DNA of 64,000 nucleotides from Patescibacteria group bacterium. Lineage in GTDB: Bacteria; Patescibacteriota; Microgenomatia; UBA1400; PJMF01. The notes beneath the pieces were generated by a model, which was not told the DNA's origin, did not search any database, and was given only the letters and a program-made list of their open reading frames with translations. Below, in pieces: positions 15,481 to 28,254 of the stretch. The position numbers and the translations under genes are program-made. How positions within the stretch are numbered: position 1 is the stretch's first letter; each line of letters begins with the position of its first letter. Location of the stretch: contig JAHDXH010000001.1 in NCBI GenBank assembly GCA_023382875.1, positions 95,527-159,526 on the forward strand, written 5' to 3'.

Positions 15481-16155
15481 CTACATCGCAAAAAGTAATA
15501 GGTCAAGTTCGCTCGCCAAATCCATAGCCATAGTACTGGTTTTTTGGCCTATTTCCAGTTTAAACAGTTGCGAGTGAAGTGCAAGGAGTTGGTCTAAGGT
15601 GAATCTGGTGGCTTGTTTTTTGAGCTTGGCGATCATGAAGGGGGCGCCGGCAACTTGTCCTCCTGATTTAACTTGGATAAGCATTCTAATTTGTCTAACT
15701 AACATGGTGAAAACAAGGAAAGGATCGTTTTGTTCTGATGCCTGGTGAAGTTGGGTTAGAAGCAACCTTTTATCATTGGTGCCAAGGTTGTCGAGTAACT
15801 CCCACATTACATTAGTAACTTTGAACTCAAAAACTTGAGCAGCAACAAACTTTTTGAGCATAGTAGCTGTCAAAGTTTTTTTCTCGTAAAGAATGATTTT
15901 CTCTTCTTGTTTAGACAGTAGTTCGATAAGTTCTTTTTTTCTGGCTGAAGTCGGCAAAGAATGCAGTTCCTCGATGATAAACATCTGGTCGCCACCAAAT
16001 AGATCGCTGCCACCGAGATTTTCGCTTAAATTGGCTAGGGTTAGTTTTTTGGCTTCTAACCTTGTAAGACTAAGGCCATTTTTTTTAGCTTCATCAATTA
16101 ATTCCTGAAGTTTTTTTCTAGACTGACTGGTGTTCTCGCCGTGGATAATAATCAC
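15481..16155 (-). CDS. Possible DNA polymerase III delta subunit (HolA-like), short
   Basis: The N-terminal pattern MIIIHGEN...DLFGG and the C-terminal helical region resemble HolA. The assignment is by eye only. Confidence 0.4.
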   Translation of the reverse strand: MIIIHGENTSQSRKKLQELIDEAKKNGLSLTRLEAKKLTLANLSENLGGSDLFGGDQMFIIEELHSLPTSARKKELIELLSKQEEKIILYEKKTLTATMLKKFVAAQVFEFKVTNVMWELLDNLGTNDKRLLLTQLHQASEQNDPFLVFTMLVRQIRMLIQVKSGGQVAGAPFMIAKLKKQATRFTLDQLLALHSQLFKLEIGQKTSTMAMDLASELDLLLFAM

Positions 16156-16244
16156 AGCTTATTTTTATCTTGATTATGGGGAAAAAACAAGCTCAGCTGT
16201 GGCTTGATCTAGGTGGCTTTTTAGTGTTTAAATAGGCGTAGTTT

Positions 16245-17336
16245 ATGTTGAAGTTTATTCAAGTTAGCAAGCAATATCTGGATGATAAACCAGCCCTTGA
16301 GAATGTTTCTTTTGAAATTGATAAGGGTGAACTGGTTTTGATTACTGGTCCTTCTGGTTCTGGCAAAACTACCCTTTTGAAGCTTTTGACTAAGGAGCTC
16401 GAGCCAAGTGAGGGTGAAATTTTTTTTGGTGATCAAGATCTGGGTAAGCTAAAAAGATCAAAAATTCCTTATCACCGTCGCAAAATTGGTGCTGTTTTTC
16501 AAGACTACAAACTTTTACCAGAGTTAAATGTGTGGGAAAACATTGCTTTAGCTCTTTCTATTTTAGGTCACCCAGACAACGAAATTGAAGAAAAAGTTAC
16601 AGATTTGCTCAAGTTAGTAGGTTTAGCGGACAAAGCCTATCTTTTTCCCCATCAACTTTCTGGTGGTGAAGCTCAAAGAATTAGTATCGCCAGAGCTTTA
16701 TCAACCGCCCCTCAAATCATTTTTGCCGACGAACCCACTGGTAATCTCGATGCTGAAAACTCTCTCATCGTGGCCAAGTTGTTAAGAAAAATCAATGAGT
16801 TGGGCACGACTGTTATCGTTACTACCCACGACCCAGTGGTAATTAAATACCTAAATTTTGCTCATAAGATGACGATTGATAAAGGTACTTTGTTTGATGA
16901 AAGTGCTAAAAAACCCGTCAAAAAAGCTGAAGAAGTGAAAAAGGCTGAATCTAAAGAAGATCGCGACGACGATCGCAAAGACCACGATGATGGCCGAGAT
17001 GATCACGACGATGACAAAGAGGAAAAAACTGAGGCCAAGTCAGACAAATCAGACAAGTCAGGTGCTTCTAAAGAGCCAAAGGTCAAAAAACACTGGGGTT
17101 TCTTTGGAGTTTTCAAACATAAGGAAAAGTCGAGTCAACCAGAAAAACCAGAAAAAAATGACAGTCATGATGGCCATCATCACGACCATCACCATGACGA
17201 TCACCATGATCACATTGAAGTCGAATCTGAAGATTTAGACGAAGATGACAAAAATGACCAACATCAAGATAAAAAAGATACAAAATCCAAGTCAGACAAA
17301 TCAAAAGTAAAAAAACACGAGGAAAAGGAAGACTAA
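16245..17336 (+). CDS. ftsE: Cell-division ABC ATPase FtsE with a C-terminal acidic, His-rich low-complexity tail of about 140 aa
   Basis: Walker A is GPSGSGKTT, the signature is LSGGEAQRISIARAL and Walker B is IFADEPTGNLD. The tail contains KDHDDGRDDHDDDKEE... and DGHHHDHHHDDHHDH. Confidence 0.85.
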   Translation: MLKFIQVSKQYLDDKPALENVSFEIDKGELVLITGPSGSGKTTLLKLLTKELEPSEGEIFFGDQDLGKLKRSKIPYHRRKIGAVFQDYKLLPELNVWENIALALSILGHPDNEIEEKVTDLLKLVGLADKAYLFPHQLSGGEAQRISIARALSTAPQIIFADEPTGNLDAENSLIVAKLLRKINELGTTVIVTTHDPVVIKYLNFAHKMTIDKGTLFDESAKKPVKKAEEVKKAESKEDRDDDRKDHDDGRDDHDDDKEEKTEAKSDKSDKSGASKEPKVKKHWGFFGVFKHKEKSSQPEKPEKNDSHDGHHHDHHHDDHHDHIEVESEDLDEDDKNDQHQDKKDTKSKSDKSKVKKHEEKED

Positions 17337-17337
17337 G

Positions 17338-18207
17338 ATGAATCCACTTGCAACTGCCCTAGTCACGATGAGACGTTCACCCTATCAATCCTTGGTCTCG
17401 ATTGTTATTTTGACTTTTACTTTTTTTGTTGCCTATTGTTTCTCTTTTTTCTTAGCCGGCAGCGAAGCTGTATTACGCTTTTTTGAAACAAGACCTCAAG
17501 TAATTGCTTTCTTTGATATCAATGCTGGTTCTGAACAAATCAATCAAGTTGGTCAAGCCATGAAAGAAAAAAGTTATGTTTCTTCGATTAAAATTGTCAG
17601 CAAAGATGAAGCTTTGAAGATTTATCAAGACGAAAACAAAGATGATCCCCTTCTTTTAGAACTGGTGACGGCTCAAATTTTGCCAGCCTCCATTGAAGTT
17701 TCTGGTTATAACATTGAAGATCTCACCCAAATCAAGTCTGACCTATCTAGTTATGAAAAAATTGAAGAGGTAGTCTTGCAAGATAGCTTGGTTGAGTCTT
17801 TATCAGGTTGGACCAACTCAATTCGTTTAGTCGGTGGAGTCAGTGTTGTTTTACTGAGCTTAGTTTCGTTAATGATTATGGTGACGGTGATTGGTATGAA
17901 AGTAGTGGCTAAGAGACCGGCAATTAAAATTATGCGTTTGATTGGTGCTACGAGCTGGTTTATTCGTTCGCCATTTGTTTTTGAAGGCATTGTTTATGGT
18001 TTAGTTAGCTCCCTTTTGGGTTGGGGTTTGAGCTATGTTGCTCTCCTCTATATCACCCCCTGGTTAACTGAGTTTTTGGCTAATATTCCAATTTTCCCTA
18101 TTCCTCCAGCTTTTTATGCTCTCCAGCTGGGAGTAGGTACAGGGCTAGGTATGATGCTTGGCGCAATTGCTGGGGGTGTAGCTGTTGGTAGAATGATCAA
18201 AAAGTAA
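17338..18207 (+). CDS. ftsX: Cell-division permease FtsX
   Basis: The start overlaps the ftsE stop. The topology is one N-terminal TM, a periplasmic loop and three C-terminal TMs. Length is 289 aa, which is FtsX-sized. Confidence 0.8.
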   Translation: MNPLATALVTMRRSPYQSLVSIVILTFTFFVAYCFSFFLAGSEAVLRFFETRPQVIAFFDINAGSEQINQVGQAMKEKSYVSSIKIVSKDEALKIYQDENKDDPLLLELVTAQILPASIEVSGYNIEDLTQIKSDLSSYEKIEEVVLQDSLVESLSGWTNSIRLVGGVSVVLLSLVSLMIMVTVIGMKVVAKRPAIKIMRLIGATSWFIRSPFVFEGIVYGLVSSLLGWGLSYVALLYITPWLTEFLANIPIFPIPPAFYALQLGVGTGLGMMLGAIAGGVAVGRMIKK

Positions 18208-18220
18208 TAATTATTTACAG

Positions 18221-19450
18221 ATGAACTTTTTTCTTAGAACTACAATCTTTTCTCTTGTGCTCGGATTTTTTGCCTTTCTATTGCCTTTTAGTGTTCAAGC
18301 TCAAAGTTGTGAAAATGTGAAGTGTGATAGCAACAGCGATAATTATCTAACTTGTCTTAACGACAAACAGATTTGTCTTGAGGCAAAAATAGAAGAAACC
18401 AAAAAAGAAGCTAGCACACTTAAGAGTGCTATTAATATTTTTGATGGACAAATTAGTGTTTTACAGCTGCAAATTGATCAAAACGTTTATCAAATCAATA
18501 AACTTGAAAAGGAAATTAACGAGCTGGGCGATCGGATTGATGGACTCAATCTTTCCCTTGATAAATTATCGAGCATCATGGTTGAGAGAGTTGGTGAGCA
18601 TTATAAAAGAAATTACGATAGCCCTGTAGTTTTGTTCTTTGCTCAAGATAAATTTGCCAAATTGGTTAGTGAATATAAATCTCTTTCTTTGGCCAAAAAA
18701 CAAACTTTGGAAGCTATGGAAAAAGCCGAGAGTTTAAGACTTAACTATGATGAACAAAAACAAACCAAGGAAACTAAGCAACTTGAGCTAGAAAAGAAGA
18801 AAAAAGATTTGGATGGGAAAAAAAGAGAGTTAGCACAGCAACGAAGTAGCAAAGAAAACTTACTTCAACAGACAAAAAATAACGAAAAACTTTATCAGAA
18901 TCTTTTAGCCGAAGCTAAAGCTGAAGTGGCAAAATTAAAGAGTTTCACCGCCTCCAAAGCCGGCGGTGTTTTATCAGCCCAGAATAGTCCGGATGGTTGG
19001 TACTTCTCACAAAGAGATGAGCGTTGGGCAAATTATCGAATTGGCAATAGTTCTGAAATTATTTATGACGTTGGTTGTTTAGTTAGTAGCGTGGCAATGA
19101 TTAGAAAGAAATTTGGTGATGATGTAACCCCAATAACGATCGCTTCCAACAATAGTTTGTTTTTCTCTAACACAGCCAACATGATGTTGAGTAATCCGTC
19201 TTGGTCTGCACCATCTGGTTATCATTATGAACACTCTTCATATTCTCAATCAAAACTAGATCAGGAGTTGGAGAAAAATCCGGTGATTGTTAAATTGCTG
19301 GCTGGTTCATATGGCACTCATTTCATTGTTATTAAAGAGAAAAAAGATGGAAAGTATATTATTCATGATCCTTGGGAGGGTTATGATAAAAATTTCTCGG
19401 ATTTTTATTCAACTAGTCAAATTAGTAGAATCAGTTACTTAGTCAAATAA
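18221..19450 (+). CDS. Secreted coiled-coil protein with a C-terminal C39-like cysteine peptidase domain (PcsB/EnvC-like FtsEX partner)
   Basis: A signal peptide is followed by a 4-Cys N-terminal motif and a long coiled coil (LQLQIDQNVYQINKLEKEINEL...). The C-terminus YFSQRDERWANYRIGNSSEIIYDVGCLVSSVAMI ... GTHFIVIKEK...IIHDPWEG matches a Cys/His papain-like (C39_2/CHAP-type) fold. Confidence 0.6.
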   Translation: MNFFLRTTIFSLVLGFFAFLLPFSVQAQSCENVKCDSNSDNYLTCLNDKQICLEAKIEETKKEASTLKSAINIFDGQISVLQLQIDQNVYQINKLEKEINELGDRIDGLNLSLDKLSSIMVERVGEHYKRNYDSPVVLFFAQDKFAKLVSEYKSLSLAKKQTLEAMEKAESLRLNYDEQKQTKETKQLELEKKKKDLDGKKRELAQQRSSKENLLQQTKNNEKLYQNLLAEAKAEVAKLKSFTASKAGGVLSAQNSPDGWYFSQRDERWANYRIGNSSEIIYDVGCLVSSVAMIRKKFGDDVTPITIASNNSLFFSNTANMMLSNPSWSAPSGYHYEHSSYSQSKLDQELEKNPVIVKLLAGSYGTHFIVIKEKKDGKYIIHDPWEGYDKNFSDFYSTSQISRISYLVK

Positions 19451-19476
19451 CCTCAAATCATTTATGATATAGAAGT

Positions 19477-20733
19477 ATGAGGTTTAAATTAATCTTAGTT
19501 AGCCTTTTCTTAAGCGTATTTTTTAACTTTACTTTTGTCAGTGTTGTAGCTGCTGCGGAATGCTCACAAACAGATTGTAGTTCTGTTGCCGAGAGTGAAA
19601 AACAAAACTGTTTGACTAAAAATATTCAGTGTCTAACTCAAAAAATTAGTGAAACCAAAACTCAGGCGGTGACTTTGCGTAATACGATTGCCATTCTTGA
19701 GCACGAAGTTTCAGTGCTTCAGCTCCAAATTGACCAAAGTTTATTTGAAATCACAGCCTTAGAAAAAGAAGTTCAGGCTTTGGGGGTGAGAATTGAACAG
19801 CTAAATCAAGATTTGGATAAGTTGGTGGATTATTTACTGGTTCGAGTGGTTGAACTCTATAAAAAAAGATTTATTACACCCCTCTCAATCCTATTTTCTT
19901 TTGAAAGTTTGTCGGATAAAGCGTCCAATTTACAGTATATAAAAATCACCCAACAGCAAGTGGCCAACAGTATGAGTCAGGCTGAGGATCAAAGGTTGGA
20001 ATTTGATAATCAAAAGAAACTCAAAGAACAAAAACAAAAAGAGTTGGAGGCAAAGAGAATTAAGCTTAATAGCCAGCAAAACGAATTGGAAGCCAAACAA
20101 CAACTTCAAGAAAACTTATTGAAAGAAACCAATCACAATGAGGCAGAATTCCAAAAGCAGCTAGACTCAGAAAAAGAAGAGTTCTTGGCTATTCAAGCCA
20201 TCTGTTCTGGTCAAGCTAATGAAGAAGAAATTAGGCATGTTTCCGCTGGAGAAAAAATTGCCACTTTGATTCAAGGTGCTTCATGTAACTCTGATGGCAC
20301 TCATTTGCATTTCTCTGTTCGGGAAAAGTCATTAAGTCCAATTACCAATAAAGATGAATATTTTTGTAAAAACCCTTTTAACTACCTGAAAAAAGAGGTT
20401 TCATTCTACAACTGCTCCACTAAGCTTGGTTGTAATCATCCAGATGGAGATCCATTTGTCCCCAGTGGGAGTTGGAACTGGCCGATCAATGAAACAATTT
20501 ACTTCTATCAAGGCTTTGGTTCAACATGGGCTGTTAAAAATGTTGATTGGCTACCATACGATTTCCACAACGGTTTAGATATGAGAGGTGATGGTCTTGA
20601 GGTAAAGGCGGTTCAATCAGGTACACTCTATCATGGTTACTACTCTGGCGGGGGTGGTTGTCAGCTTCCTTACGTCATAGTTCGCCATGATGACTCCAAC
20701 GTTGACTCTCTATATCTCCATGTTAATTATTAA
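19477..20733 (+). CDS. Secreted coiled-coil protein with an apparently circularly permuted M23 (LytM) metallopeptidase domain; paralog of 18221..19450 in its N-terminal half
   Basis: A signal peptide, a 4-Cys motif and a coiled coil align to the upstream gene. The M23 third motif VSAGEKIATLIQGASCNSDGTHLHF is at about aa 250-277. The M23 first and second motifs FHNGLDMRGDG...GGGGCQLPYVIVRHDDSNVDSLYLHV are at the extreme C-terminus. Confidence 0.6.
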   Translation: MRFKLILVSLFLSVFFNFTFVSVVAAAECSQTDCSSVAESEKQNCLTKNIQCLTQKISETKTQAVTLRNTIAILEHEVSVLQLQIDQSLFEITALEKEVQALGVRIEQLNQDLDKLVDYLLVRVVELYKKRFITPLSILFSFESLSDKASNLQYIKITQQQVANSMSQAEDQRLEFDNQKKLKEQKQKELEAKRIKLNSQQNELEAKQQLQENLLKETNHNEAEFQKQLDSEKEEFLAIQAICSGQANEEEIRHVSAGEKIATLIQGASCNSDGTHLHFSVREKSLSPITNKDEYFCKNPFNYLKKEVSFYNCSTKLGCNHPDGDPFVPSGSWNWPINETIYFYQGFGSTWAVKNVDWLPYDFHNGLDMRGDGLEVKAVQSGTLYHGYYSGGGGCQLPYVIVRHDDSNVDSLYLHVNY

Positions 20734-20774
20734 TATCCCATAAGTGTTGACACAAATAGGCTTATAATATATAA

Positions 20775-21053
20775 TTGGGTACTATAACTATGAATAAAAA
20801 CAAATTGTTCATCGCCATCTTATTAAGTTTTGCTATTTTTGGTTTTTCTTTTAGTGGTGTAGCCGCTGATACCTACGGTCAAGAAAATTGTACTTCTACC
20901 TATGGTCAAGCTGGTTGTATTACTTCTACCGAAGCTTCCAAGTCTGCCGTTTATTTGGCTGATACTGCCTTAGACACTCCTTCATTGATTGTCGCTGGTG
21001 GAGTCATGCTTAGCGGCATCGTCGCTTTGGTTCTCAAGAAAAAAATTGCTTAA
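20775..21053 (+). CDS. Small exported Cys-containing peptide with a sorting-signal-like C-terminus (candidate sortase substrate)
   Basis: A signal peptide is followed by a mature segment DTYGQENCTSTYGQAGCITS..., then LADTA, a hydrophobic stretch and KKKIA. The gene lies directly upstream of the sortase gene. Confidence 0.4.
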   Translation: MGTITMNKNKLFIAILLSFAIFGFSFSGVAADTYGQENCTSTYGQAGCITSTEASKSAVYLADTALDTPSLIVAGGVMLSGIVALVLKKKIA

Positions 21054-21099
21054 TTTTTACTAGATTTTTGTCTAGTTAGCTAAAAGTAGAATTCTGAAG

Positions 21100-21849
21100 A
21101 TGAGTTTGATTTACACTTCCTCTCCAGTAGTTCGCCGATCACCTAGTTACAAAAAAACTAGGCTGACTTTATTGGGTCAAAAGAAAAAGGTCGGAAATTT
21201 TCACAACAACAAATTAAGTAAAAAGTTGACCTCAGCCTTTTTAAGTCTGGTCATCGTTTTTTCACTGCTTTTTAGTGGTGTCTTCTTGATCCCAAAAATT
21301 GTTTACGCTTTTTACGATCCTAATACTTTAGTTTTGACTAACTCGGTCAACGAAACTGCTTTGGGTGGTGATGTGGAGTCTGGACCTAAACATTCTAGCT
21401 ATTTGCCAGAGATTAATGAAAATTTGCCTGAAGAAAATTGGTTAGAAATCCCCTTTATTGGCGTTAGGTCATTAATTCACGAAACAGTTGACCCAGAAGA
21501 AGCGCTTGATCAAGGTGTGTGGTTAGATCCTGCCTTTGGCGTGCCTGGTGAAGGCAAGACGGTGATTTTAGCCGCTCATCGCTATGGATGGAAATGGTGG
21601 TGGAAAGATGAATACTGGCGCTATAACTCATTTTATAACTTGCCTGAAACAGAGGTTGGCGATGTAGTTGAAATCACTTATGGTCAAAGAAAATTTGTTT
21701 ACGAAATTTACTTGGCCACTGAAGGTGAAGAGATTACGGACTTTAATGCTGACTTAATTTTGTACACCTGTAAGTATTTAGATTCGCCGATTAGATATTT
21801 CCGTTATGCTAGGTTAATCGATCCGACACAAGATAGTCAGAGCCTGTAA
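21100..21849 (+). CDS. Sortase family transpeptidase
   Basis: An N-terminal TM anchor is present. The catalytic triad context is His in ILAAHRYG, Cys in LILYTCKY and Arg in RYFRYARL. Confidence 0.7.
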   Translation: MSLIYTSSPVVRRSPSYKKTRLTLLGQKKKVGNFHNNKLSKKLTSAFLSLVIVFSLLFSGVFLIPKIVYAFYDPNTLVLTNSVNETALGGDVESGPKHSSYLPEINENLPEENWLEIPFIGVRSLIHETVDPEEALDQGVWLDPAFGVPGEGKTVILAAHRYGWKWWWKDEYWRYNSFYNLPETEVGDVVEITYGQRKFVYEIYLATEGEEITDFNADLILYTCKYLDSPIRYFRYARLIDPTQDSQSL

Positions 21850-21885
21850 TGTTGATTATTAAGACATAATTTGATATAATAAACT

Positions 21886-22158
21886 ATGAATTTAGATAAT
21901 ATGAATACAAACAAAACATTCACTTTAGCCCACGCTTTGCTCGTTTTGAGTTTATCCGTTTTATTGACCGGAGCTTTAATCGCAGCTAGTCAGGTGGCTA
22001 AGGCTGCTTGGGAATTGGAAGCTAGTAAGGCTCAAACCAAAACTCAAGCGGTTAAAAATTGTTTTGAAATTGCCAGAGGTACTAGAACCACTAGTGGTTC
22101 TAGCGCTAATGAAAATTGGCAATTGAGTCAAGTTGACCTAAACTACGAAGTTATTTAG
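21886..22158 (+). CDS. Small membrane-anchored hypothetical protein
   Basis: The 90-aa ORF has an N-terminal hydrophobic helix (FTLAHALLVLSLSVLLTGALIAA). No domain was recognized. Confidence 0.3.
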   Translation: MNLDNMNTNKTFTLAHALLVLSLSVLLTGALIAASQVAKAAWELEASKAQTKTQAVKNCFEIARGTRTTSGSSANENWQLSQVDLNYEVI

Positions 22159-22400
22159 AAGTGTTTAGGTGAAGTTGACGCCCAATAAATTGGTCTCAAG
22201 CACCGGATGAATCTTCTGGTTCATCTCATGCTGTAGATCAACAAGATCTCAGCGCTCTTTAAAAACATATTCAAAACTACGACTGGTTCACCAAGTGTCA
22301 TTTGTGGCCTTTGGTAAACCAGTTGTAGTGTGAGGAAATACCCGATCCCAACTGGTCGAAGTATCGAAGTCAAGTCAACCTATTCTCAAGGAGAACTGCT

Positions 22401-23141
22401 GTGAAGACGAAACTGTATTCCGTTCTGTTGGTGCTGGCTCTGCTGAGCCTGCTGGTGGTGCCTGCCGCTCAGGCACAGGACAATTCCGATGAGGTTTCTG
22501 GCGAAGGCTGGAGCATCACTGGCGATGTCCCCGAAGAAGTCGTCCCCAATAAGTGGGAACTGGAAGAGTCTGATGACGAATCCAGCATCTTGCCACAAGG
22601 CGGATGGATGTTCAATGCCGCCGGCGTTTTGAGTGCCGCCCGCTACGAAGACGCTGAAGCCAACGAATCGGCTGTCTGGTCTGGCGCTGGTGACGTTCAG
22701 GAACTGCTGGAAAACCGCACAGCCGAACTCATCCTGCCCGAAAGTGGCTACATGATGGTGGTCGGCGCGGGCTTCGATGTGACCTGTGGCGGCTATTCTG
22801 TCTCGTTGGAGCCGCAAGAAGACCACGCGTGGTTTCTCGTTTTGCGCGGACGCGCCGATGGTCGTGGTGACCGCAACGTGGTCTGCGAATTCAGCAATTA
22901 CACGGCGGGCGCCGTGTTAGTGACCATGTACGCTGTGCCGGTTCACGCCAGCGCGTTTTTCTCTGAAGGCTACCTCGCCGACAATATGGAAAACGCACGG
23001 GTGCGCAAGAACTGCGGCGCAACCGGTTGCTCGTACACCAGCGTGCTGGCCCTCGATGTGAACGATGGCGCTTACGGTGCATGGACGTATGGCGATGAGG
23101 AGTTTGAACTCGAAGTCACCAATGCGGTCATGCCTGAGTAA
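22401..23141 (+). CDS. Acidic secreted hypothetical protein encoded in a high-GC island (GTG start)
   Basis: The signal peptide is MKTKLYSVLLVLALLSLLVVPAAQA. AAGGAGA lies upstream. GC is about 60% with CTG/GCC-rich codon usage, unlike all neighbours. Shadow ORFs on the opposite strand are typical of high-GC DNA. Confidence 0.5.
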   Translation: MKTKLYSVLLVLALLSLLVVPAAQAQDNSDEVSGEGWSITGDVPEEVVPNKWELEESDDESSILPQGGWMFNAAGVLSAARYEDAEANESAVWSGAGDVQELLENRTAELILPESGYMMVVGAGFDVTCGGYSVSLEPQEDHAWFLVLRGRADGRGDRNVVCEFSNYTAGAVLVTMYAVPVHASAFFSEGYLADNMENARVRKNCGATGCSYTSVLALDVNDGAYGAWTYGDEEFELEVTNAVMPE

Positions 23142-23186
23142 TCAGCCCCCGGACGGTCTGCCCCCACAATTGAATATGTTCAACTT

Positions 23187-23213
23187 TCTCCTCGGGCCCC
23201 AAACCCGAGGAGA
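23187..23213 (+). terminator. GC-rich hairpin tctcctcggg/cccgaggaga downstream of the island gene
   Basis: A perfect 10-bp inverted repeat with a 7-nt loop is present. No clean U-tract follows. Confidence 0.35.
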
Positions 23214-23255
23214 ATACTTGTGTTCATCTCTTTAAACAGTTAATCTTAAGTAGAG

Positions 23256-26200
23256 GTGAATAGAAGTATTCTCACCGAAGTATTCATGAAGAAAGCTCTG
23301 CCCCACTTTACTAAATTCGGTGATTGGTTTTTTCAAAAGCTTAAGATTCACTATCCCCTATTAATTGTCCTAAGCATCGCTTTAATTATTGCTGCCAAAA
23401 ACATTGGTTTTAATCAGTGGTATTCTGGCTGGGATAATTTGCACGGCGAGTTTGATTTAAGTCGTTACACGAGCCAAGTTTTGGGTGGAGCATGGTTGGA
23501 GCATCAAGGTTTAGGTGCACCGATGAATTTGGCGCACTTGGCCGAGGTGTCACGTTTGCCGATTCTGTGGCTGTTAGCGACTGTTTTGCCTGATCATTTA
23601 ATTAGAATTACTTTTATTTTTTTGATGTACACCATAGGTGGCATCAGCATGTACTTTTTTCTTTCCCAGGTTTGGGTTGATCATCGCTTGGGCGCAGCTA
23701 AGAACTGGGTGGCAGCTCTTGGTGGAGTTTTATATCTTCTTCACATTTTGACTTTGCAGCAGTTTTATATTGCTTTTGAAATGTTCACGGTTCAATTTGC
23801 TTTTTTGCCTTTATTGTTTTTGATAGTTCACCGTTTCAGAAAGAAAGTTTTGGCGCCAACTGTTGTTTTATTTGCTGGATTGCAAATGCTTTTAGCACCC
23901 AGTGGTCATACGCCAACCAATTTTTATTTGGCGGTTTTGAGTTCACAGGTTTATGGTTTTTTCTTACTTTTACCAAAAGGACTGATGAAGGCATTAAAAA
24001 CGGCTTTTGTGATTGGCCTTTTGACTTTTGTTATTAATAGTTATTGGATTGTCCCCAATCTTTATTACACTTTCCATAACGCTCATTACGTTCAAGAAAG
24101 CCATGATAATCAACTATTTGCTCCTGAATCGGTTTCCAGTATTAGAGAGGCTGGAACTTGGCAAAATTTTCTTAAAGGCACGCAGTATTTGTTGGAATGG
24201 AAAGATTACGATTTTGAAACCAAGCAACTGGAGCTGATTTTTAACGATTGGCAAGAGCATTTGAATTTGCCGTATGTTCAGGTAATGTTGGTGGGAATTA
24301 GTTTGTTTACTATTTTTGGTTTGTTGACAGTTATTTTTAATCGGCGCAAAGGGACAAAGAGATGGGCAATTGCTTTGATTTATGTGGGCTGCGTGAGTTT
24401 TATTTGGATGGGTCTTTTCCCCAGTGGCTGGTTGTTTGAAAAACTTTATCAAGTTGGTTCGTTTACTGAAGCTTTTCGCAATCCTTTTACTAAACTTTCA
24501 ATTATTTATTCAGTAGTGTCGGTGATTTTATTTGTCAGTTTTTGGGAAGTATTGCTTTTGAAGATAAAGAAACACTTTAGGCCAGCGATAGTTTTACTTT
24601 TGATGGTGGCTATTGGCTATACGGTTTGGCCAAGTTTTGAAGGTCACTTTATTAGTGAAAAATTAAAAGTTCAGTATCCTAGTCAATACTTTGAGATGTT
24701 CGCTTTTTTGAGAAAAAAAGATCCACAGCTAAGAATTCTACCTCTACCTCAGCTTAACCACGCGGGTTGGGAATATTTTGATTGGCAGTTTTTGGGCAAA
24801 GGTAATGGTTATCAAGGAATGGGTTTTTACTTTTTTGGTGTGCCGCAGCCAGTTCTCCATCGCGACTCCGACCGTTGGGTGGAAACTTCAGATTTTTTCT
24901 TTCATGAGTTGAAGTACGCGCTCGATAGTCAGGATCTGAATTTATTCAACCAGGTAGTGGAAAAATATAAAATCGACCTGATTTTGATCGACGAAACTAG
25001 AGTTGACCCAAGTCGAGTGGTTGATTTTTCAACTCAGCACCAATTGGCTAAATTAGCTGGCTTTAGCAAAATTTGGCAGTTGGATTTTTTGAGTATTTAC
25101 CAAAAACCCACCCCCAATGCAGAAAGTAAGCTATTAATTCCACCTACGATCAATAAAGTTGACACTAACGCTAATCGAGTAATTTTTGACGCTGCATTTA
25201 AAGAGCAAAAAGATTATTTGTTAGATAAAAAGGACGCCGGTGTTAGTTATCCTCTGGCTGAATTATTGACCAAGCAAGTTGACAACATTGTTTATGCTGA
25301 TGATCACATTAGTTTAACCAAAAAGTTACCAGACAATTTTAGAGGTGAAGTCAATCTTAAAATTCCTGACCTGATGTCTAGTGTTGTGCCGGTGGCAGTT
25401 TCATATCACCAGGGCGAACTGGTGGTGGCTTTTCCAAAAACTGAGTTAAGATTTACAGATCAAATTATTGAACTTCCTCATTTGGAAAACCAAAACTTTG
25501 TCATTCCTAATGCTCCAGCTTCATTATTAGTTTTATTTGACAATCAAGTTGTTACAGTTGGTGAGGGTCAAACAAGCTATCAAGTTTTGAATATTAAAGA
25601 CAATAATTCACTCAAGCTAAGTTTTGCTGTTCAACCTGCTGTTTTGCCCAAAACCCAAGATGGTTTTATTGATGGCTCTAGGTTGGAGATCAATGATTTG
25701 GCTGAGATCGGGGTGAGCCACAAACTTTGGGAAGAAGAAACAAAAAGAGTCGAATTAAATGGTAGTTTGACTGTGGTAACTACTTTCCCATTCAAAAAAT
25801 TAAACATTACTGAGAATCCATCACAAAACTGTTCAAAACCGGAGCGTGGTTCTATTTCTACCAGACAAAGTTTAACTGACAAAAGTGTTTTATATACGGC
25901 AGATTCTTATGGAGTGAACTGTAACGGTTTGTCTCTAATTGATACGAGTAGTTGGGAAGATTATTTGCTCAGAGTGGTTGGTGAAAACCATGAGGGTCGT
26001 GGACTGAAGTTTTTCATTAATCGTAGCAAAACTACCTTGCCCGATGATTATATTTTTTCCACCGCTCAGTATGATTCTGCCATTACTCTTCACGGTCTTT
26101 TTTCATTACCAGAAACTGCTTTGAGTATGAATTGGGAAGCAAGATCGTTGGGCATGAAAACAGTTTCTAGTCTCAATCAAATGTTGCTTTTGCCTGTGCC

Positions 26201-26642
26201 ACTGCAGCAATTGGCTGGTGTTAGCTTGAGTTTGGATGGTGGTGAAACAAAGAAAAATGGAGTTGAGGTTGTTTCTTACTTGTTTGGTTCTGATACCTTC
26301 CACGTTGTAGAGTTGAATTGTCAGCATGCTCCCTGTGCAATTGGCCTTGACCAGTCATATGACTCTGCATGGCTGGGTTTTGTTATGCCTGATAGGTGGT
26401 GGAAGTTTGGCTCCTATAAGCTTTTATCGCACTGGCATTTGAATTCTTGGGCAAACGCGTGGGAAGTTTCTGTAGGTAAACAAAAAATTATGATTTTTTA
26501 TGGTCCGCAAATTTTGACTGGTATCCAACTAATTGGTTTGGGTATGGTAGTAGGCTTGGTTTTGCGCTGGGCAATCAAGTTTTATCAAACAAAGTTTTAC
26601 GCACTCAATAAAAAATTGCGCCGTCGGCTTTTGGGTTTTTAA
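23256..26642 (+). CDS. Large polytopic membrane protein (about 13 N-terminal TMs, a large extracytoplasmic domain and a C-terminal TM), YfhO/AftD-like GT-C-type architecture
   Basis: The hydrophobicity pattern over 1128 aa supports the topology. No motif-level assignment was made. The functional call is architectural only. Confidence 0.35.
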   Translation: MNRSILTEVFMKKALPHFTKFGDWFFQKLKIHYPLLIVLSIALIIAAKNIGFNQWYSGWDNLHGEFDLSRYTSQVLGGAWLEHQGLGAPMNLAHLAEVSRLPILWLLATVLPDHLIRITFIFLMYTIGGISMYFFLSQVWVDHRLGAAKNWVAALGGVLYLLHILTLQQFYIAFEMFTVQFAFLPLLFLIVHRFRKKVLAPTVVLFAGLQMLLAPSGHTPTNFYLAVLSSQVYGFFLLLPKGLMKALKTAFVIGLLTFVINSYWIVPNLYYTFHNAHYVQESHDNQLFAPESVSSIREAGTWQNFLKGTQYLLEWKDYDFETKQLELIFNDWQEHLNLPYVQVMLVGISLFTIFGLLTVIFNRRKGTKRWAIALIYVGCVSFIWMGLFPSGWLFEKLYQVGSFTEAFRNPFTKLSIIYSVVSVILFVSFWEVLLLKIKKHFRPAIVLLLMVAIGYTVWPSFEGHFISEKLKVQYPSQYFEMFAFLRKKDPQLRILPLPQLNHAGWEYFDWQFLGKGNGYQGMGFYFFGVPQPVLHRDSDRWVETSDFFFHELKYALDSQDLNLFNQVVEKYKIDLILIDETRVDPSRVVDFSTQHQLAKLAGFSKIWQLDFLSIYQKPTPNAESKLLIPPTINKVDTNANRVIFDAAFKEQKDYLLDKKDAGVSYPLAELLTKQVDNIVYADDHISLTKKLPDNFRGEVNLKIPDLMSSVVPVAVSYHQGELVVAFPKTELRFTDQIIELPHLENQNFVIPNAPASLLVLFDNQVVTVGEGQTSYQVLNIKDNNSLKLSFAVQPAVLPKTQDGFIDGSRLEINDLAEIGVSHKLWEEETKRVELNGSLTVVTTFPFKKLNITENPSQNCSKPERGSISTRQSLTDKSVLYTADSYGVNCNGLSLIDTSSWEDYLLRVVGENHEGRGLKFFINRSKTTLPDDYIFSTAQYDSAITLHGLFSLPETALSMNWEARSLGMKTVSSLNQMLLLPVPLQQLAGVSLSLDGGETKKNGVEVVSYLFGSDTFHVVELNCQHAPCAIGLDQSYDSAWLGFVMPDRWWKFGSYKLLSHWHLNSWANAWEVSVGKQKIMIFYGPQILTGIQLIGLGMVVGLVLRWAIKFYQTKFYALNKKLRRRLLGF

Positions 26643-26693
26643 CTTGAGATAAATTTCAGATTTGTGTAAGGTTTAGGTTTTATAACAATCTCT

Positions 26694-27902
26694 ATGAGAA
26701 AGTTGGTTGTTATCTTGCTAATTGGTGTTTTTTATTTTGGCTGTGTGGATTTAATCTCAGCTCAAGTAATTATTAATGAGGTTTATCCTCAACCACTTAG
26801 TGGTGAGTTAGAGTGGGTGGAGTTAAAAAATTCTTCTAGTGTTTCTGCTTTTCTAAATGGTTGGGTTTTGGAAGATATGCTCAGTTCTCCCAAAACTATT
26901 TATTCATTTGGCTTACTTGAGATTTTACCTAACCAGTTTTTTGTTGCTACCTTTTCTGGTCAGTTGAATAATAATGCCGATGGGGTGGTTTTGAGAGATT
27001 CATCGGGCAATATTATTTCTCAAATGAGTTATAGCTCAAGCTATTCAGGACTCAGTTGGCAGCTAGACAACCAAGGTACTTTTATTTCTGAGAGCCCGAC
27101 TAAGGGTGCAGAAAATTCTGTGGCGGAATTAGCGCCCACGCCTTCGCCGACTCTGCAACCTTCTGCAAGCCCTTTGCCCACTCCATCGCCATCGCCATCG
27201 CCTACTCCTTCACCAGCAACTAGTTTGGTTTCAATAGACAAGATTCGTCAATTGCAGCTCCTGAAAGTTTCTAGTTGCCCCAAAAGCGGTAATGAATGGC
27301 TGGAGTGGCTAAATACTGGTGAAGAAAAACTTCTTGCGACTTTGATGATTAAAGATTTGCAAGCCAATAATTTATCAGTCAGTATTGAAGTTGAACCAGG
27401 TAAAAAGGTAATTACCAATTTGTCTCGTCACATTTTCAATAACAGTGGAGATGAATTATTTGTTTATTTTAACGATCAATTATTGGTAAATAAAAATCTA
27501 CCAAGTTGTGAAACTGCAGACACAATTTTTTCATTTTCGTCCGATTTTAATTGGCCAATTGAAGAAGTGATTGAAAATGATGACTATGTTGCTCTTAGTA
27601 CTTCTAGTCCAGGCTTAGATATCCAAGCAAAAACCGCTATTACACAACCAGAAGCCAGCAAAAAGCTAACAAAAAAGCCTAATTTTTTATTACCGACTTT
27701 GGAAAGTTTTCCGACTTCTGCTAGTGGAGTGGCAGCAAAATTACCTGAAAGCAGCCGAGTTTTGGGATCAACAATCAATGAAGATTTAGACAGTATTTTT
27801 CAGTTTAGGTGGTTTTTGATCTGCGGTGGGTTTTTATGGACAGGTCTGGGTATAATAGAAATCTATGGAGCAGTTTTCTCTCAAAATAAAGCTGTGGGTT
27901 AA
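26694..27902 (+). CDS. Surface protein with an N-terminal lamin-tail domain (LTD), a Pro/Ser/Thr linker and a C-terminal TM anchor
   Basis: After the signal peptide, the LTD pattern is VIINEVYPQP...EWVELKN...LNGWVLED...NNADGVVLRDSSGNII. The linker is PTPSPSPSPTPSP. A hydrophobic C-terminus follows. Confidence 0.55.
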   Translation: MRKLVVILLIGVFYFGCVDLISAQVIINEVYPQPLSGELEWVELKNSSSVSAFLNGWVLEDMLSSPKTIYSFGLLEILPNQFFVATFSGQLNNNADGVVLRDSSGNIISQMSYSSSYSGLSWQLDNQGTFISESPTKGAENSVAELAPTPSPTLQPSASPLPTPSPSPSPTPSPATSLVSIDKIRQLQLLKVSSCPKSGNEWLEWLNTGEEKLLATLMIKDLQANNLSVSIEVEPGKKVITNLSRHIFNNSGDELFVYFNDQLLVNKNLPSCETADTIFSFSSDFNWPIEEVIENDDYVALSTSSPGLDIQAKTAITQPEASKKLTKKPNFLLPTLESFPTSASGVAAKLPESSRVLGSTINEDLDSIFQFRWFLICGGFLWTGLGIIEIYGAVFSQNKAVG

Positions 27903-28254
27903 AGCTTTTTTACCAGCCATTGTTTGGGCGATGGTGATTTTTACCCTTTCTTCTCAGCCAACTTTGCCTGGTTTTGAATCAGGATTTTTTGATTTTATTC
28001 TCAAAAAATCTGCACACATGTTTGTTTATGCAGTGCTTTATTTATTGATTGCTAGAGGTGTAGAAATGGTTGAACCAACTAGGGCAAAAAAAAGCTGGTT
28101 GGTTTTTTTACCACTTTTGATTGTGCTTTTTTATGCCATCAGTGATGAGTTTCATCAGTCTTTAGTTCCCAATCGATATCCTACATTTAGAGATATTGGT
28201 TATGATATACTAGGTGCTTCGTTAATGTTCTTTAGAAAGTATAAATACATTTAA
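27865..28254 (+). CDS. VanZ-like membrane protein (the start is probably the internal Met near 27931)
   Basis: The VanZ motif ISDEFHQSLVPNRYPTFRDIGYDILG is present with 3-4 TMs. The 5' end overlaps the previous gene. Confidence 0.6.
   Translation: MEQFSLKIKLWVKAFLPAIVWAMVIFTLSSQPTLPGFESGFFDFILKKSAHMFVYAVLYLLIARGVEMVEPTRAKKSWLVFLPLLIVLFYAISDEFHQSLVPNRYPTFRDIGYDILGASLMFFRKYKYI

Follow-up and report, generated by a model that had tools for sequence, protein, structure and literature searches.

An ftsEX block with two predicted coiled-coil wall hydrolases and exchangeable catalytic domains in a Patescibacteria genome

FtsEX-controlled wall hydrolysis is a central and much-studied step of bacterial division, and the known FtsEX partners are few (EnvC, PcsB, CwlO and RipC) and are treated as fixed, lineage-specific solutions. 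We analysed a 64,000-nucleotide stretch of contig JAHDXH010000001.1 from a Patescibacteria bacterium (the window, meaning the whole of that stretch), in which ftsE and ftsX are followed by genes for two predicted secreted coiled-coil proteins, hydrolase 1 and hydrolase 2, with different catalytic domains. Six co-oriented open reading frames (ORFs) were confirmed from the ORF listing, in the places and order that a preliminary description of this DNA had reported: ftsE, ftsX, the two coiled-coil proteins, a gene for a putative mini sortase substrate and a sortase gene (Table 1). The first four form one tight block, with intergenic gaps of 1, 13 and 26 nucleotides (nt), and a scan found no terminator-like sites in these three gaps, nor between hydrolase 2 and the mini-substrate gene. 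The six-gene arrangement recurs in the independent assemblies L091 (95–98% identical), L010 and L171 (L numbers denote loci in related genomes), and is therefore not an assembly artefact.

The block encodes an FtsE ATPase together with an FtsX bearing an extracellular domain. The ABC_tran match of ftsE and the FtsX_ECD and FtsX matches of ftsX were above the Pfam cut-offs, and TIGR02673 (FtsE) was the best NCBIfam match of ftsE (E = 1.5e-74). The ratio of nonsynonymous to synonymous substitution rates (dN/dS), taken against L091, was 0.059 for ftsE, 0.011 for ftsX, 0.011 for hydrolase 1, 0.027 for hydrolase 2 and 0.019 for the sortase gene; the comparison with L010 was saturated at synonymous sites. 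Purifying selection on both hydrolases is as strong as on ftsX.

Behind its ATPase domain, FtsE has a highly charged tail in which a run of His and Asp, HDGHHHDHHHDDHHDH, occurs and a hydrophobic motif, KKHWGFFGVFK, is embedded. Of this motif, the FFG[VL]F part is kept in the window's clade (L001, L002, L010, L091 and L094), and many other Microgenomates have long charged FtsE tails (up to 485 amino acids, aa) but without it. The motif might be a membrane- or divisome-binding element.

Table 1. Coordinates of the features discussed (window positions unless a locus is named)
Feature	Position (nt)	Strand	Description
ftsE	16245-17336	+	363 aa; ABC ATPase aa 1-215 plus ~145-aa charged, His-rich C-terminal tail; ABC_tran E 8e-37
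FtsE tail	16890-17336		aa ~216-363
ftsX	17338-18207	+	289 aa; permease-like with extracellular domain; PF18075 FtsX_ECD 56 bits, PF02687 FtsX 45.7 bits
Hydrolase 1	18221-19450	+	409 aa; predicted secreted coiled-coil protein with C39-like peptidase; Peptidase_C39 match
Hydrolase 1, N-terminal parts		+	signal peptide ~aa 1-27; Cys30/35/45/52; helical hairpin aa 39-245
Hydrolase 1, 4-Cys pattern	18308-18376		start of mature protein
Hydrolase 1, C39-like domain	18968-19447	+	aa ~250-409
Hydrolase 2	19477-20733	+	418 aa; predicted secreted coiled-coil protein with circularly permuted M23 domain; Peptidase_M23 match
Hydrolase 2, N-terminal parts		+	signal peptide ~aa 1-26; Cys29/34/45/52; helical hairpin aa 39-243
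Hydrolase 2, 4-Cys pattern	19561-19632		start of mature protein
Hydrolase 2, permuted M23 domain	20206-20730	+	aa 244-418
Hydrolase 2, HLH motif	20302-20310	+	
Hydrolase 2, HxxxD motif	20566-20580	+	
Hydrolase 2, H415	20719-20721	+	
Swapped cassette, L016	7679-8209 (L016)		unrelated to that of L105 yet of the same length, 531 bp
Swapped cassette, L105	7700-8234 (L105)		unrelated to that of L016 yet of the same length, 531 bp
Promoter, consensus sigma-70 type	20747-20775	+	TTGACA-17-TATAAT, ahead of the mini-substrate gene
Small ORF (mini sortase substrate)	20775-21053	+	ATG at 20790; 87 aa from the ATG
Sortase, membrane-anchored	21100-21849	+	249 aa; PF04203 match
Promoter-like site	21852-21880		10/12 match, ahead of the 90-aa ORF
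90-aa ORF	21886-22158	+	after the sortase gene; membrane or secreted; homologues in L010 and L001; no family match
246-aa acidic protein	22401-23141	+	
Mirror ORF	22386-22826	-	antisense to the 246-aa protein
1128-aa membrane protein	23256-26642	+	
LTD-domain protein	26694-27902	+	Pfam LTD 48.3 bits
VanZ-like protein	27865-28254	+	Pfam VanZ 38.4 bits

Two coiled-coil proteins with different catalytic domains

Homology between the N-terminal halves of hydrolases 1 and 2, which the preliminary description had proposed, is borne out by 36% identity over 245 aa (E = 1e-38). In AlphaFold models both form a long antiparallel helical hairpin, with helices at residues 67–131 and 145–218 and a low-confidence tip at residues 131–150. 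Structure searches found that the models resemble EnvC of the FtsEX-EnvC complex as well as PcsB, RipC and RipA; the best match of the M23-type model, that of hydrolase 2, was EnvC in 8tzl and 6tpi, with RipC (8idc_E) and RipA also among its matches. Hairpin residues L67, Y128 and T218 are invariant in both families, and I106, L109, Y154, L197, L204, L214/215, Q226 and L229 are nearly so; Y128 and Y154 flank the low-confidence tip. FtsX binds the hairpin tip in solved complexes (PMC11627006), and by analogy the tip of both hydrolases would be the FtsX docking site.

Linkage to ftsX was almost complete. Of the informative loci, 74 of 77 with the C39 type (GTDB species) and 68 of 68 with the M23 type (metagenomes) had it immediately upstream, 142 of 145 in all, so this part of the gene order, for which a conservation check had been suggested, is retained. 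By the AlphaFold models, both proteins have the architecture of FtsEX partners, a secreted hairpin followed by a wall-hydrolase fold. Both hydrolases thus look like FtsEX partners.

Each of the two window proteins had been described as a four-cysteine (4-Cys) motif plus a coiled coil, and each does carry a Cx4C...Cx6C motif right after its signal-peptide-like N-terminus. In the families at large the motif is optional, being present in 65 of 117 C39-type and 19 of 119 M23-type homologues, and it follows lineage rather than catalytic type: both members of two pairs of loci with exchanged catalytic domains (L016/L105 and L018/L135, see below) have it. The four cysteines likely form two disulfides.

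A Pfam search, which the preliminary description had recommended for both C-terminal domains, gave matches above the cut-offs in each case. For hydrolase 1 the match was Peptidase_C39 (PF03412; 26.4 bits, cut-off 22) at residues 286–387, and the C39-like family PF13529 scored 21.8 bits, under its cut-off of 24. Across 70 aligned homologues, residues Q264, C286, H367 and D383, which make up the papain-clan set, do not vary; the C-terminal domain of hydrolase 1 is a C39-like papain-fold peptidase domain. Its AlphaFold model (predicted local distance difference test score, pLDDT, 90.1) had PcsB (4cgk) as its top Foldseek match, over the whole length, and its C-terminal domain matched the C39-like folds 3erv, ComA (3k8u/5xe8) and PCAT1 (7n87). 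At the sequence level, a phmmer search of the C39-type protein against PDB sequences gave coiled-coil noise only, with no significant PcsB match. Neither CHAP nor NlpC/P60 matched hydrolase 1 in Pfam or NCBIfam, so the earlier label of a C39/CHAP-like peptidase resembling PcsB holds for C39 and for the PcsB fold but not for CHAP. Nor is this a bona fide C39 peptidase, which is an N-terminal exporter domain cleaving Gly-Gly leaders, since the domain here is C-terminal on a secreted-type coiled-coil protein.

For hydrolase 2 the Pfam match was Peptidase_M23 (33.5 bits, cut-off 28.7), in two stretches. The complete M23 motif set is present (HxxxD, HxH and the third catalytic His), and H276, H278, H364, D368 and H415 are invariant in the homologue alignment. 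The order of the motifs, though, is HxH (residues 276–278), HxxxD (364–368) and H415, rather than the canonical HxxxD...H...HxH. Consistent with this, phmmer against PDB aligned residues 363–416 with the N-terminal half and residues 253–283 with the C-terminal half of the M23 chains 9gy1_A and 9m7n_A. The HxH motif precedes HxxxD by about 80 residues in 118 of 120 homologues, and nearly all 120 M23-type homologues end in YLH[VI]NY or within two residues of it. We then de-permuted the domain in silico by joining residues 328–418 ahead of residues 244–300. The rearranged sequence gave a single contiguous Pfam match (profile positions 2–91 of 96; 43.7 bits, against 36.4 bits in two pieces) and made the PDB alignments contiguous as well, their E-value falling from 7e-3 to 7e-7. 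Judged by motif order and profile matches, the M23 domain of hydrolase 2 is circularly permuted. Its AlphaFold model has a pLDDT of 92.5 overall and above 88 across the M23 domain.

A full HMMER scan of 1.84 billion representatives returned just 96 relatives of the permuted domain. Nearly all were 385–430 aa long with the domain at the C-terminus, and canonical M23 proteins matched one half only. Given this near-uniform architecture, the permuted domain seems to be confined to coiled-coil proteins of this kind. Because every catalytic residue is kept, hydrolase 2 should be a catalytically competent enzyme and not an EnvC-like activator. The degenerate LytM domain without zinc ligands that defines EnvC was not found here, and the EnvC model NF008644 had no match to the M23-type protein; in this block it matched only the C39-type protein's coiled coil, at 15.3 bits where the cut-off is 270. 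The comparison with EnvC made in the preliminary description therefore applies to the architecture only, the M23 domain being neither degenerate nor in canonical order.

Distribution and exchange of the catalytic domains

We surveyed the best 80 C39-type loci among GTDB species genomes and the best 80 M23-type loci among metagenomes, two different collections, and annotated them with profiles built from the alignments of this analysis. All homologues with a taxon name were from Patescibacteria, also called the Candidate Phyla Radiation (CPR), and mostly from Microgenomates groups (Pace-, Woese-, Beckwith-, Levy-, Blackburn-, Shapiro-, Collier- and Roizmanbacteria, and WWE3). In these 160 related CPR loci, a single coiled-coil hydrolase of either type almost always lay directly behind ftsEX. 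Tandems occurred in one of the 80 C39-type loci (L024) and three of the 80 M23-type loci (L091, which is of the window's species, and L122/L123); further tandems in L008/L009, L010 and L171 were found separately. Their order was always C39 before M23, and this order recurs in four separate lineages. The norm is one hydrolase per ftsEX, with the C39 and M23 types replacing each other. The preliminary description had proposed two alternative FtsEX partners of different chemistry; linkage and structural likeness agree with this, but a tandem of both is not the typical arrangement.

Trees were distance-based and used about 200–290 columns. In a neighbour-joining tree of FtsX, loci with only the C39 type and loci with only the M23 type were thoroughly interleaved. 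The hairpins of tandem pairs grouped by genome or lineage (L008 and L024 with 100% bootstrap each, the window's clade with 69%). The tandem has been retained in the window, L010, L091 and L171, across which protein identity is down to 62% for the C39 type and 42% for the M23 type, and the sister clade (L001, L092–L094) has an M23-type gene only.

Exchange of the catalytic domain could be read directly from pairs of closely related loci. The proteins of L016 (C39 type) and L105 (M23 type), both of 418 aa, have coiled coils that are 95–97% identical; over residues 1–240 identity is about 97%, and beyond that the two are unrelated. At the DNA level the two loci are 94% identical over 7.7 kb up to codon 240, have no similarity over 531 bp, and are again 94% identical over 2.8 kb from the stop codon. 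Both junctions are exact, one falling on the TKNxE..YQ turn and the other on the stop codon. The M23 allele of L105 was assembled independently in a second metagenome (L104). The L105 hairpin is nearest to those of C39-type genes (L016 95%, L014 77%, L019 74%). For its M23 domain, identity to the nearest other sequence sampled is no more than 67%, so the cassette came from outside the clade. Two further pairs, L018/L135 and L060/L130, showed the same swap pattern at greater divergence. As the break point falls just behind the conserved TKN[ND]E..YQ..L turn, the short last helix (residues 222–243 in the models) moves with the catalytic ‘warhead’.

Because tandem hairpins group by genome or lineage, the hairpin tracks FtsX and lineage, with the warheads as two interchangeable and conserved modules. 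On the evidence of these sequences, the catalytic domains behave as exchangeable cassettes on a lineage-tracking coiled coil. A history of two ancient paralogue clades set by catalytic type was rejected, given the grouping of tandem hairpins by genome, the near-identical hairpins that bear different warheads and the interleaving in the FtsX tree. The single M23-type gene of L001 had looked like the product of a deletion that fused hairpin 1 to warhead 2, the gene's hairpin being nearer to window hairpin 1 (51–54%) than to hairpin 2 (43–44%). This too was rejected: the L001 hairpin groups with that of the second gene of L171 (100% bootstrap), and window hairpin 2 is simply fast-evolving. Differential loss from a recent tandem is an unlikely origin for L105, since its M23 domain is at most 67% identical to others, its hairpin is 95% identical to that of L016, the sister lineages are all C39-type and the replacement is exact at both ends.

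The sortase pair and the downstream genes

The preliminary description had reported a small peptide with a sorting-signal-like tail followed by a sortase, and both genes were confirmed. The mini substrate consists of a signal peptide, a duplicated YGQ..C motif, LADTA-LDTP, a hydrophobic segment and a KKKIA tail, and is conserved in seven loci of the clade with the motif LA[DN]TALDTP. TIGR01167 (LPXTG_anchor) scored 14.0 bits against a cut-off of 15.9, and the motif is not LPXTG; from its sequence features the protein is a plausible sortase substrate. The sortase matched PF04203 above its Pfam cut-off (32.9 bits, cut-off 26.6). Its triad, read from the sequence without an alignment, may comprise the His in AAHRYG, the Cys in LYTCKY and the Arg in RYFRYARL. 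Class D sortase models scored 19–21 bits, far under their cut-offs, and no class could be assigned; 417 homologues were found, CPR-wide. The anchored product left after the predicted cleavages would have about 33–45 residues with two Cys (as seen in the window, L001, L010, L091–L093 and L171), probably an unusually small and abundant wall-linked peptide. A 2026 preprint on a CPR ‘Pam pilus’ was considered and is unrelated to the sortase and mini substrate.

The sortase pair had also been proposed to form a compact module with ftsEX and the hydrolases, a claim that did not hold up. In 300 ORFs taken from the downstream side of about 102 ftsEX-hydrolase loci, Pfam placed a sortase within the first three downstream genes in only five loci, four of them (L001, L010, L091, L093) in the window's clade; this adjacency is local to the clade. 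The mini-substrate gene has its own promoter, the sole 12/12 match to TTGACA-17-TATAAT in the 6.6 kb scanned (15900–22500), and this promoter is conserved in L010, L091, L001 and L171. Neither hydrolase bears a sorting signal, and when the window was scanned for other proteins with such signals, only the mini substrate and one spurious short ORF came up. A distant sortase homologue is located elsewhere (L172), and the 0.9 kb upstream of it contains no ATG-initiated ORF of at least 40 aa, hence no mini substrate of this kind. Synteny across the clade extends to the whole neighbourhood, including the unrelated PPDK, NTP-transferase, PGM and holA genes, so the adjacency of ftsEX and sortase carries little information. 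The sortase and its LAxTA mini substrate would, from these sequences, be an independent and strongly expressed surface-anchoring pair, next door to the hydrolases by chance.

Among the 300 downstream ORFs the recurrent families were LTD (45), VanZ (39) and TsaE (31). LTD and VanZ genes are the commonest direct downstream neighbours in Microgenomates, whichever the warhead, and in 38 of 114 loci the hydrolase is followed within 400 nt by the start of a gene resembling the LTD gene of the window. By analogy with SweCD or SteAB, the LTD and VanZ proteins could be cofactors. In the window they are displaced about 6–7 kb downstream by a block (~20750–26650) holding the mini substrate, the sortase, a 90-aa ORF, a G+C-rich secreted protein and an 1128-aa membrane protein; the simplest reading is that this block was inserted between the hydrolases and LTD/VanZ.

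Other genes of this block were noted in passing. The 90-aa ORF has an N-terminal hydrophobic segment and an AVKNCFE[IV]A.G motif. The 246-aa acidic protein, which has a signal peptide, is encoded in a patch of 47% G+C where the surroundings have about 38%. It is shared with L010 and matched no family; it was possibly acquired horizontally, and the mirror ORF antisense to it is probably a by-product of composition. The 1128-aa protein is polytopic, without a Pfam match. Its counterparts in L001, L010 and L171 have 1075–1118 aa, that of L171 with a weak PTPS_related match, and in L001 and L171 the gene follows one for a GT2 glycosyltransferase. This protein may be a wall or glycan polymer enzyme.

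Mechanism, alternatives and known systems

Our explanation, which we hold to be probable though by no means secure, is that the window, from a Microgenomates/Pacebacteria-like CPR bacterium, contains one ftsEX block with two alternative coiled-coil hydrolases whose warheads are exchangeable, the sortase pair being independent. Both hydrolases would be exported, each as a long helical hairpin of the EnvC/PcsB/RipC/CwlO kind followed by a catalytic warhead. The hairpin tip would dock on the extracellular domains of the FtsX dimer, and ATP turnover by FtsE would alter the hairpin, relieve autoinhibition and free the warhead at the division site; the cassette-specific last helix may take part in this relief. 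The warheads would then act on septal peptidoglycan by cutting its peptides directly, like PcsB, CwlO and RipC, in the Gram-positive manner and not via an amidase as in E. coli. Most likely the two proteins would compete for, or alternate on, one FtsEX, giving two bond specificities or redundancy. Their roles are probably equivalent, because relatives manage with either one.

Several points weigh against this explanation. The ftsE product scored 250.3 bits, below the curated TIGR02673 cut-off of 264.85, and the ftsX product fell below the NCBIfam FtsX cut-offs (TIGR00439, 155.2 against 255; NF038347, 140.8 against 225). These models were still the best matches of both genes, and scores under equivalog cut-offs are expected for a divergent CPR lineage. 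The structure searches with hydrolase 2 were sequential and dominated by the hairpin, and did not superpose the permuted fold on canonical M23. The tandem frequencies are rough, coming from the best 80 loci of each of two different collections, and the survey covered ftsEX-linked loci, a second hydrolase elsewhere in the ‘single’ genomes being unlikely. One FtsEX would need to be shared by two partners, and it is we who infer FtsX binding, secretion, enzymatic activity and bond specificity for both hydrolases.

We weighed other accounts of the same genes. In one, only one of the two hydrolases is FtsEX-driven in the window's genome and the other obeys a different regulator, as with RipA (SteAB) and RipC (FtsEX) in Corynebacteriales. 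Paralogous coiled-coil hydrolases with separate regulators have a precedent (PMC9897464). The hairpin of the second gene is also the more divergent (dN 0.139, against 0.087 for hydrolase 1) and, as window_M2, branches outside the other hairpins of its clade. This account is nevertheless unlikely: in essentially all lineages with a single hydrolase, be it of one type or the other, its gene directly follows ftsX, the two families share their invariant hairpin positions, and the Pfam and NCBIfam scans saw no SteAB-like pair in the block. The rarity of tandems and the sister clade with its lone M23-type gene would suit a different account, in which the tandem is a passing or redundant stage in the replacement of one cassette by the other, with one copy being lost. 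We find this distinctly improbable in view of the strong purifying selection on both genes, the persistence of the tandem in four genomes of the clade despite their divergence, and the recurrence of the C39-M23 order in separate lineages.

The integrated division and wall-remodelling module, comprising ftsEX, both hydrolases, the mini substrate and the sortase, draws on an adjacency that is conserved in the window, L010, L091, L171, L001 and L092–L094. It is very improbable given the rarity of a sortase at related loci, the mini-substrate gene's own promoter, the distant sortase homologue elsewhere, the hydrolases' lack of sorting signals, the synteny of the entire neighbourhood and the position of the sortase block, which splits the hydrolases from LTD/VanZ. 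Equally improbable is a target outside the cell, in which the hydrolases attack the wall of a host bacterium instead of their own septum and warhead turnover follows the host's peptidoglycan type. CPR bacteria are often episymbionts, and in-frame exchange of catalytic domains, seen here between near-identical genomes, typically marks conflict systems, endolysins and polymorphic toxins among them. Strict linkage to ftsEX and purifying selection comparable to that on ftsX oppose a host target, and the Pfam and NCBIfam scans found no toxin-delivery or immunity genes in the block.

Within our preferred explanation of two alternative FtsEX hydrolases, a further and more tentative idea, which we regard as possible but not probable, is that the Microgenomates hairpin is a warhead-agnostic adaptor. 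C39-like and permuted M23 warheads would be swapped on it horizontally and in frame, adaptively tracking the cross-link chemistry of the cell's own wall or of a host's, and the window tandem would deploy both through one FtsEX. The CPR loci would add two partner chemistries, a C39-like Cys peptidase and an active M23 enzyme, to those known. They also amount to a natural experiment: one and the same FtsX works with two unrelated catalytic domains carried on almost identical hairpins. This bears on the question of whether FtsEX activation is a generic release of an autoinhibited domain or is tailored to the enzyme, and loci of the L016/L105 type provide defined constructs for testing it. In the division of genome-reduced, uncultivated CPR bacteria, septal hydrolysis may depend mainly on one or two enzymes of this kind.

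FtsEX with a coiled-coil hydrolase is already known as a kind. The literature searched contained no description of C39-like or active M23 FtsEX partners, which agrees with the earlier impression that the arrangement is undescribed, nor of a permuted M23/LytM domain, and nothing specific on FtsEX in Patescibacteria/CPR or on domain swaps in FtsEX partners. As far as that literature goes, the C39-like partner, the catalytically complete M23 partner, the circular permutation of M23 and the in-frame exchange of warheads on a constant hairpin are new.

The closest known relative of hydrolase 1 in kind is PcsB of FtsEX-PcsB in S. pneumoniae, a coiled coil with a papain-clan Cys peptidase that FtsEX controls and that acts on peptidoglycan directly; several homologues are annotated with PF24568, the coiled-coil family of PcsB. 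Unlike PcsB, hydrolase 1 is C39-like (PF03412/PF13529) and not CHAP, and its gene lies directly behind ftsX. Hydrolase 2 resembles EnvC of E. coli, V. cholerae and P. aeruginosa in its helical hairpin with an M23/LytM-fold domain. EnvC has a degenerate LytM domain, which activates amidases (PMC11627006), whereas in hydrolase 2 the catalytic residues are all invariant and the domain is circularly permuted. FtsEX-CwlO of B. subtilis and FtsEX-RipC of M. tuberculosis and Corynebacterium resemble the proposed system in that bacteria lacking an outer membrane directly activate a coiled-coil endopeptidase, and several homologues carry the JGI label ‘CwlO-like’; the warheads of CwlO and RipC are NlpC/P60 domains, those of the window C39-like or M23. 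As in the window, Corynebacteriales have two paralogous coiled-coil hydrolases in one organism, RipA and RipC, of which RipA is controlled independently of FtsEX, according to the title of PMC9897464. RipA and RipC share NlpC/P60 chemistry, whereas the window pair differs in chemistry and both of its genes lie in the ftsEX block.

For the sortase pair, the counterparts are the housekeeping and pilus sortases of Gram-positive bacteria, where a signal peptide and tripartite sorting signal are encoded beside the sortase, as predicted here. The putative window substrate has LA[DN]TA in place of their LPXTG, and its mature product would be unusually short.

Phage endolysins and autolysins exchange catalytic modules on a conserved targeting module, much as the warheads here are exchanged on the hairpin. 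Circular permutation of a wall-hydrolase catalytic domain has been described for NlpC/P60 (the YaeF and LRAT families; PMC6403190). What sets the CPR proteins apart from endolysins and autolysins is that their conserved module would be the predicted FtsEX-docking hairpin of a housekeeping division system.

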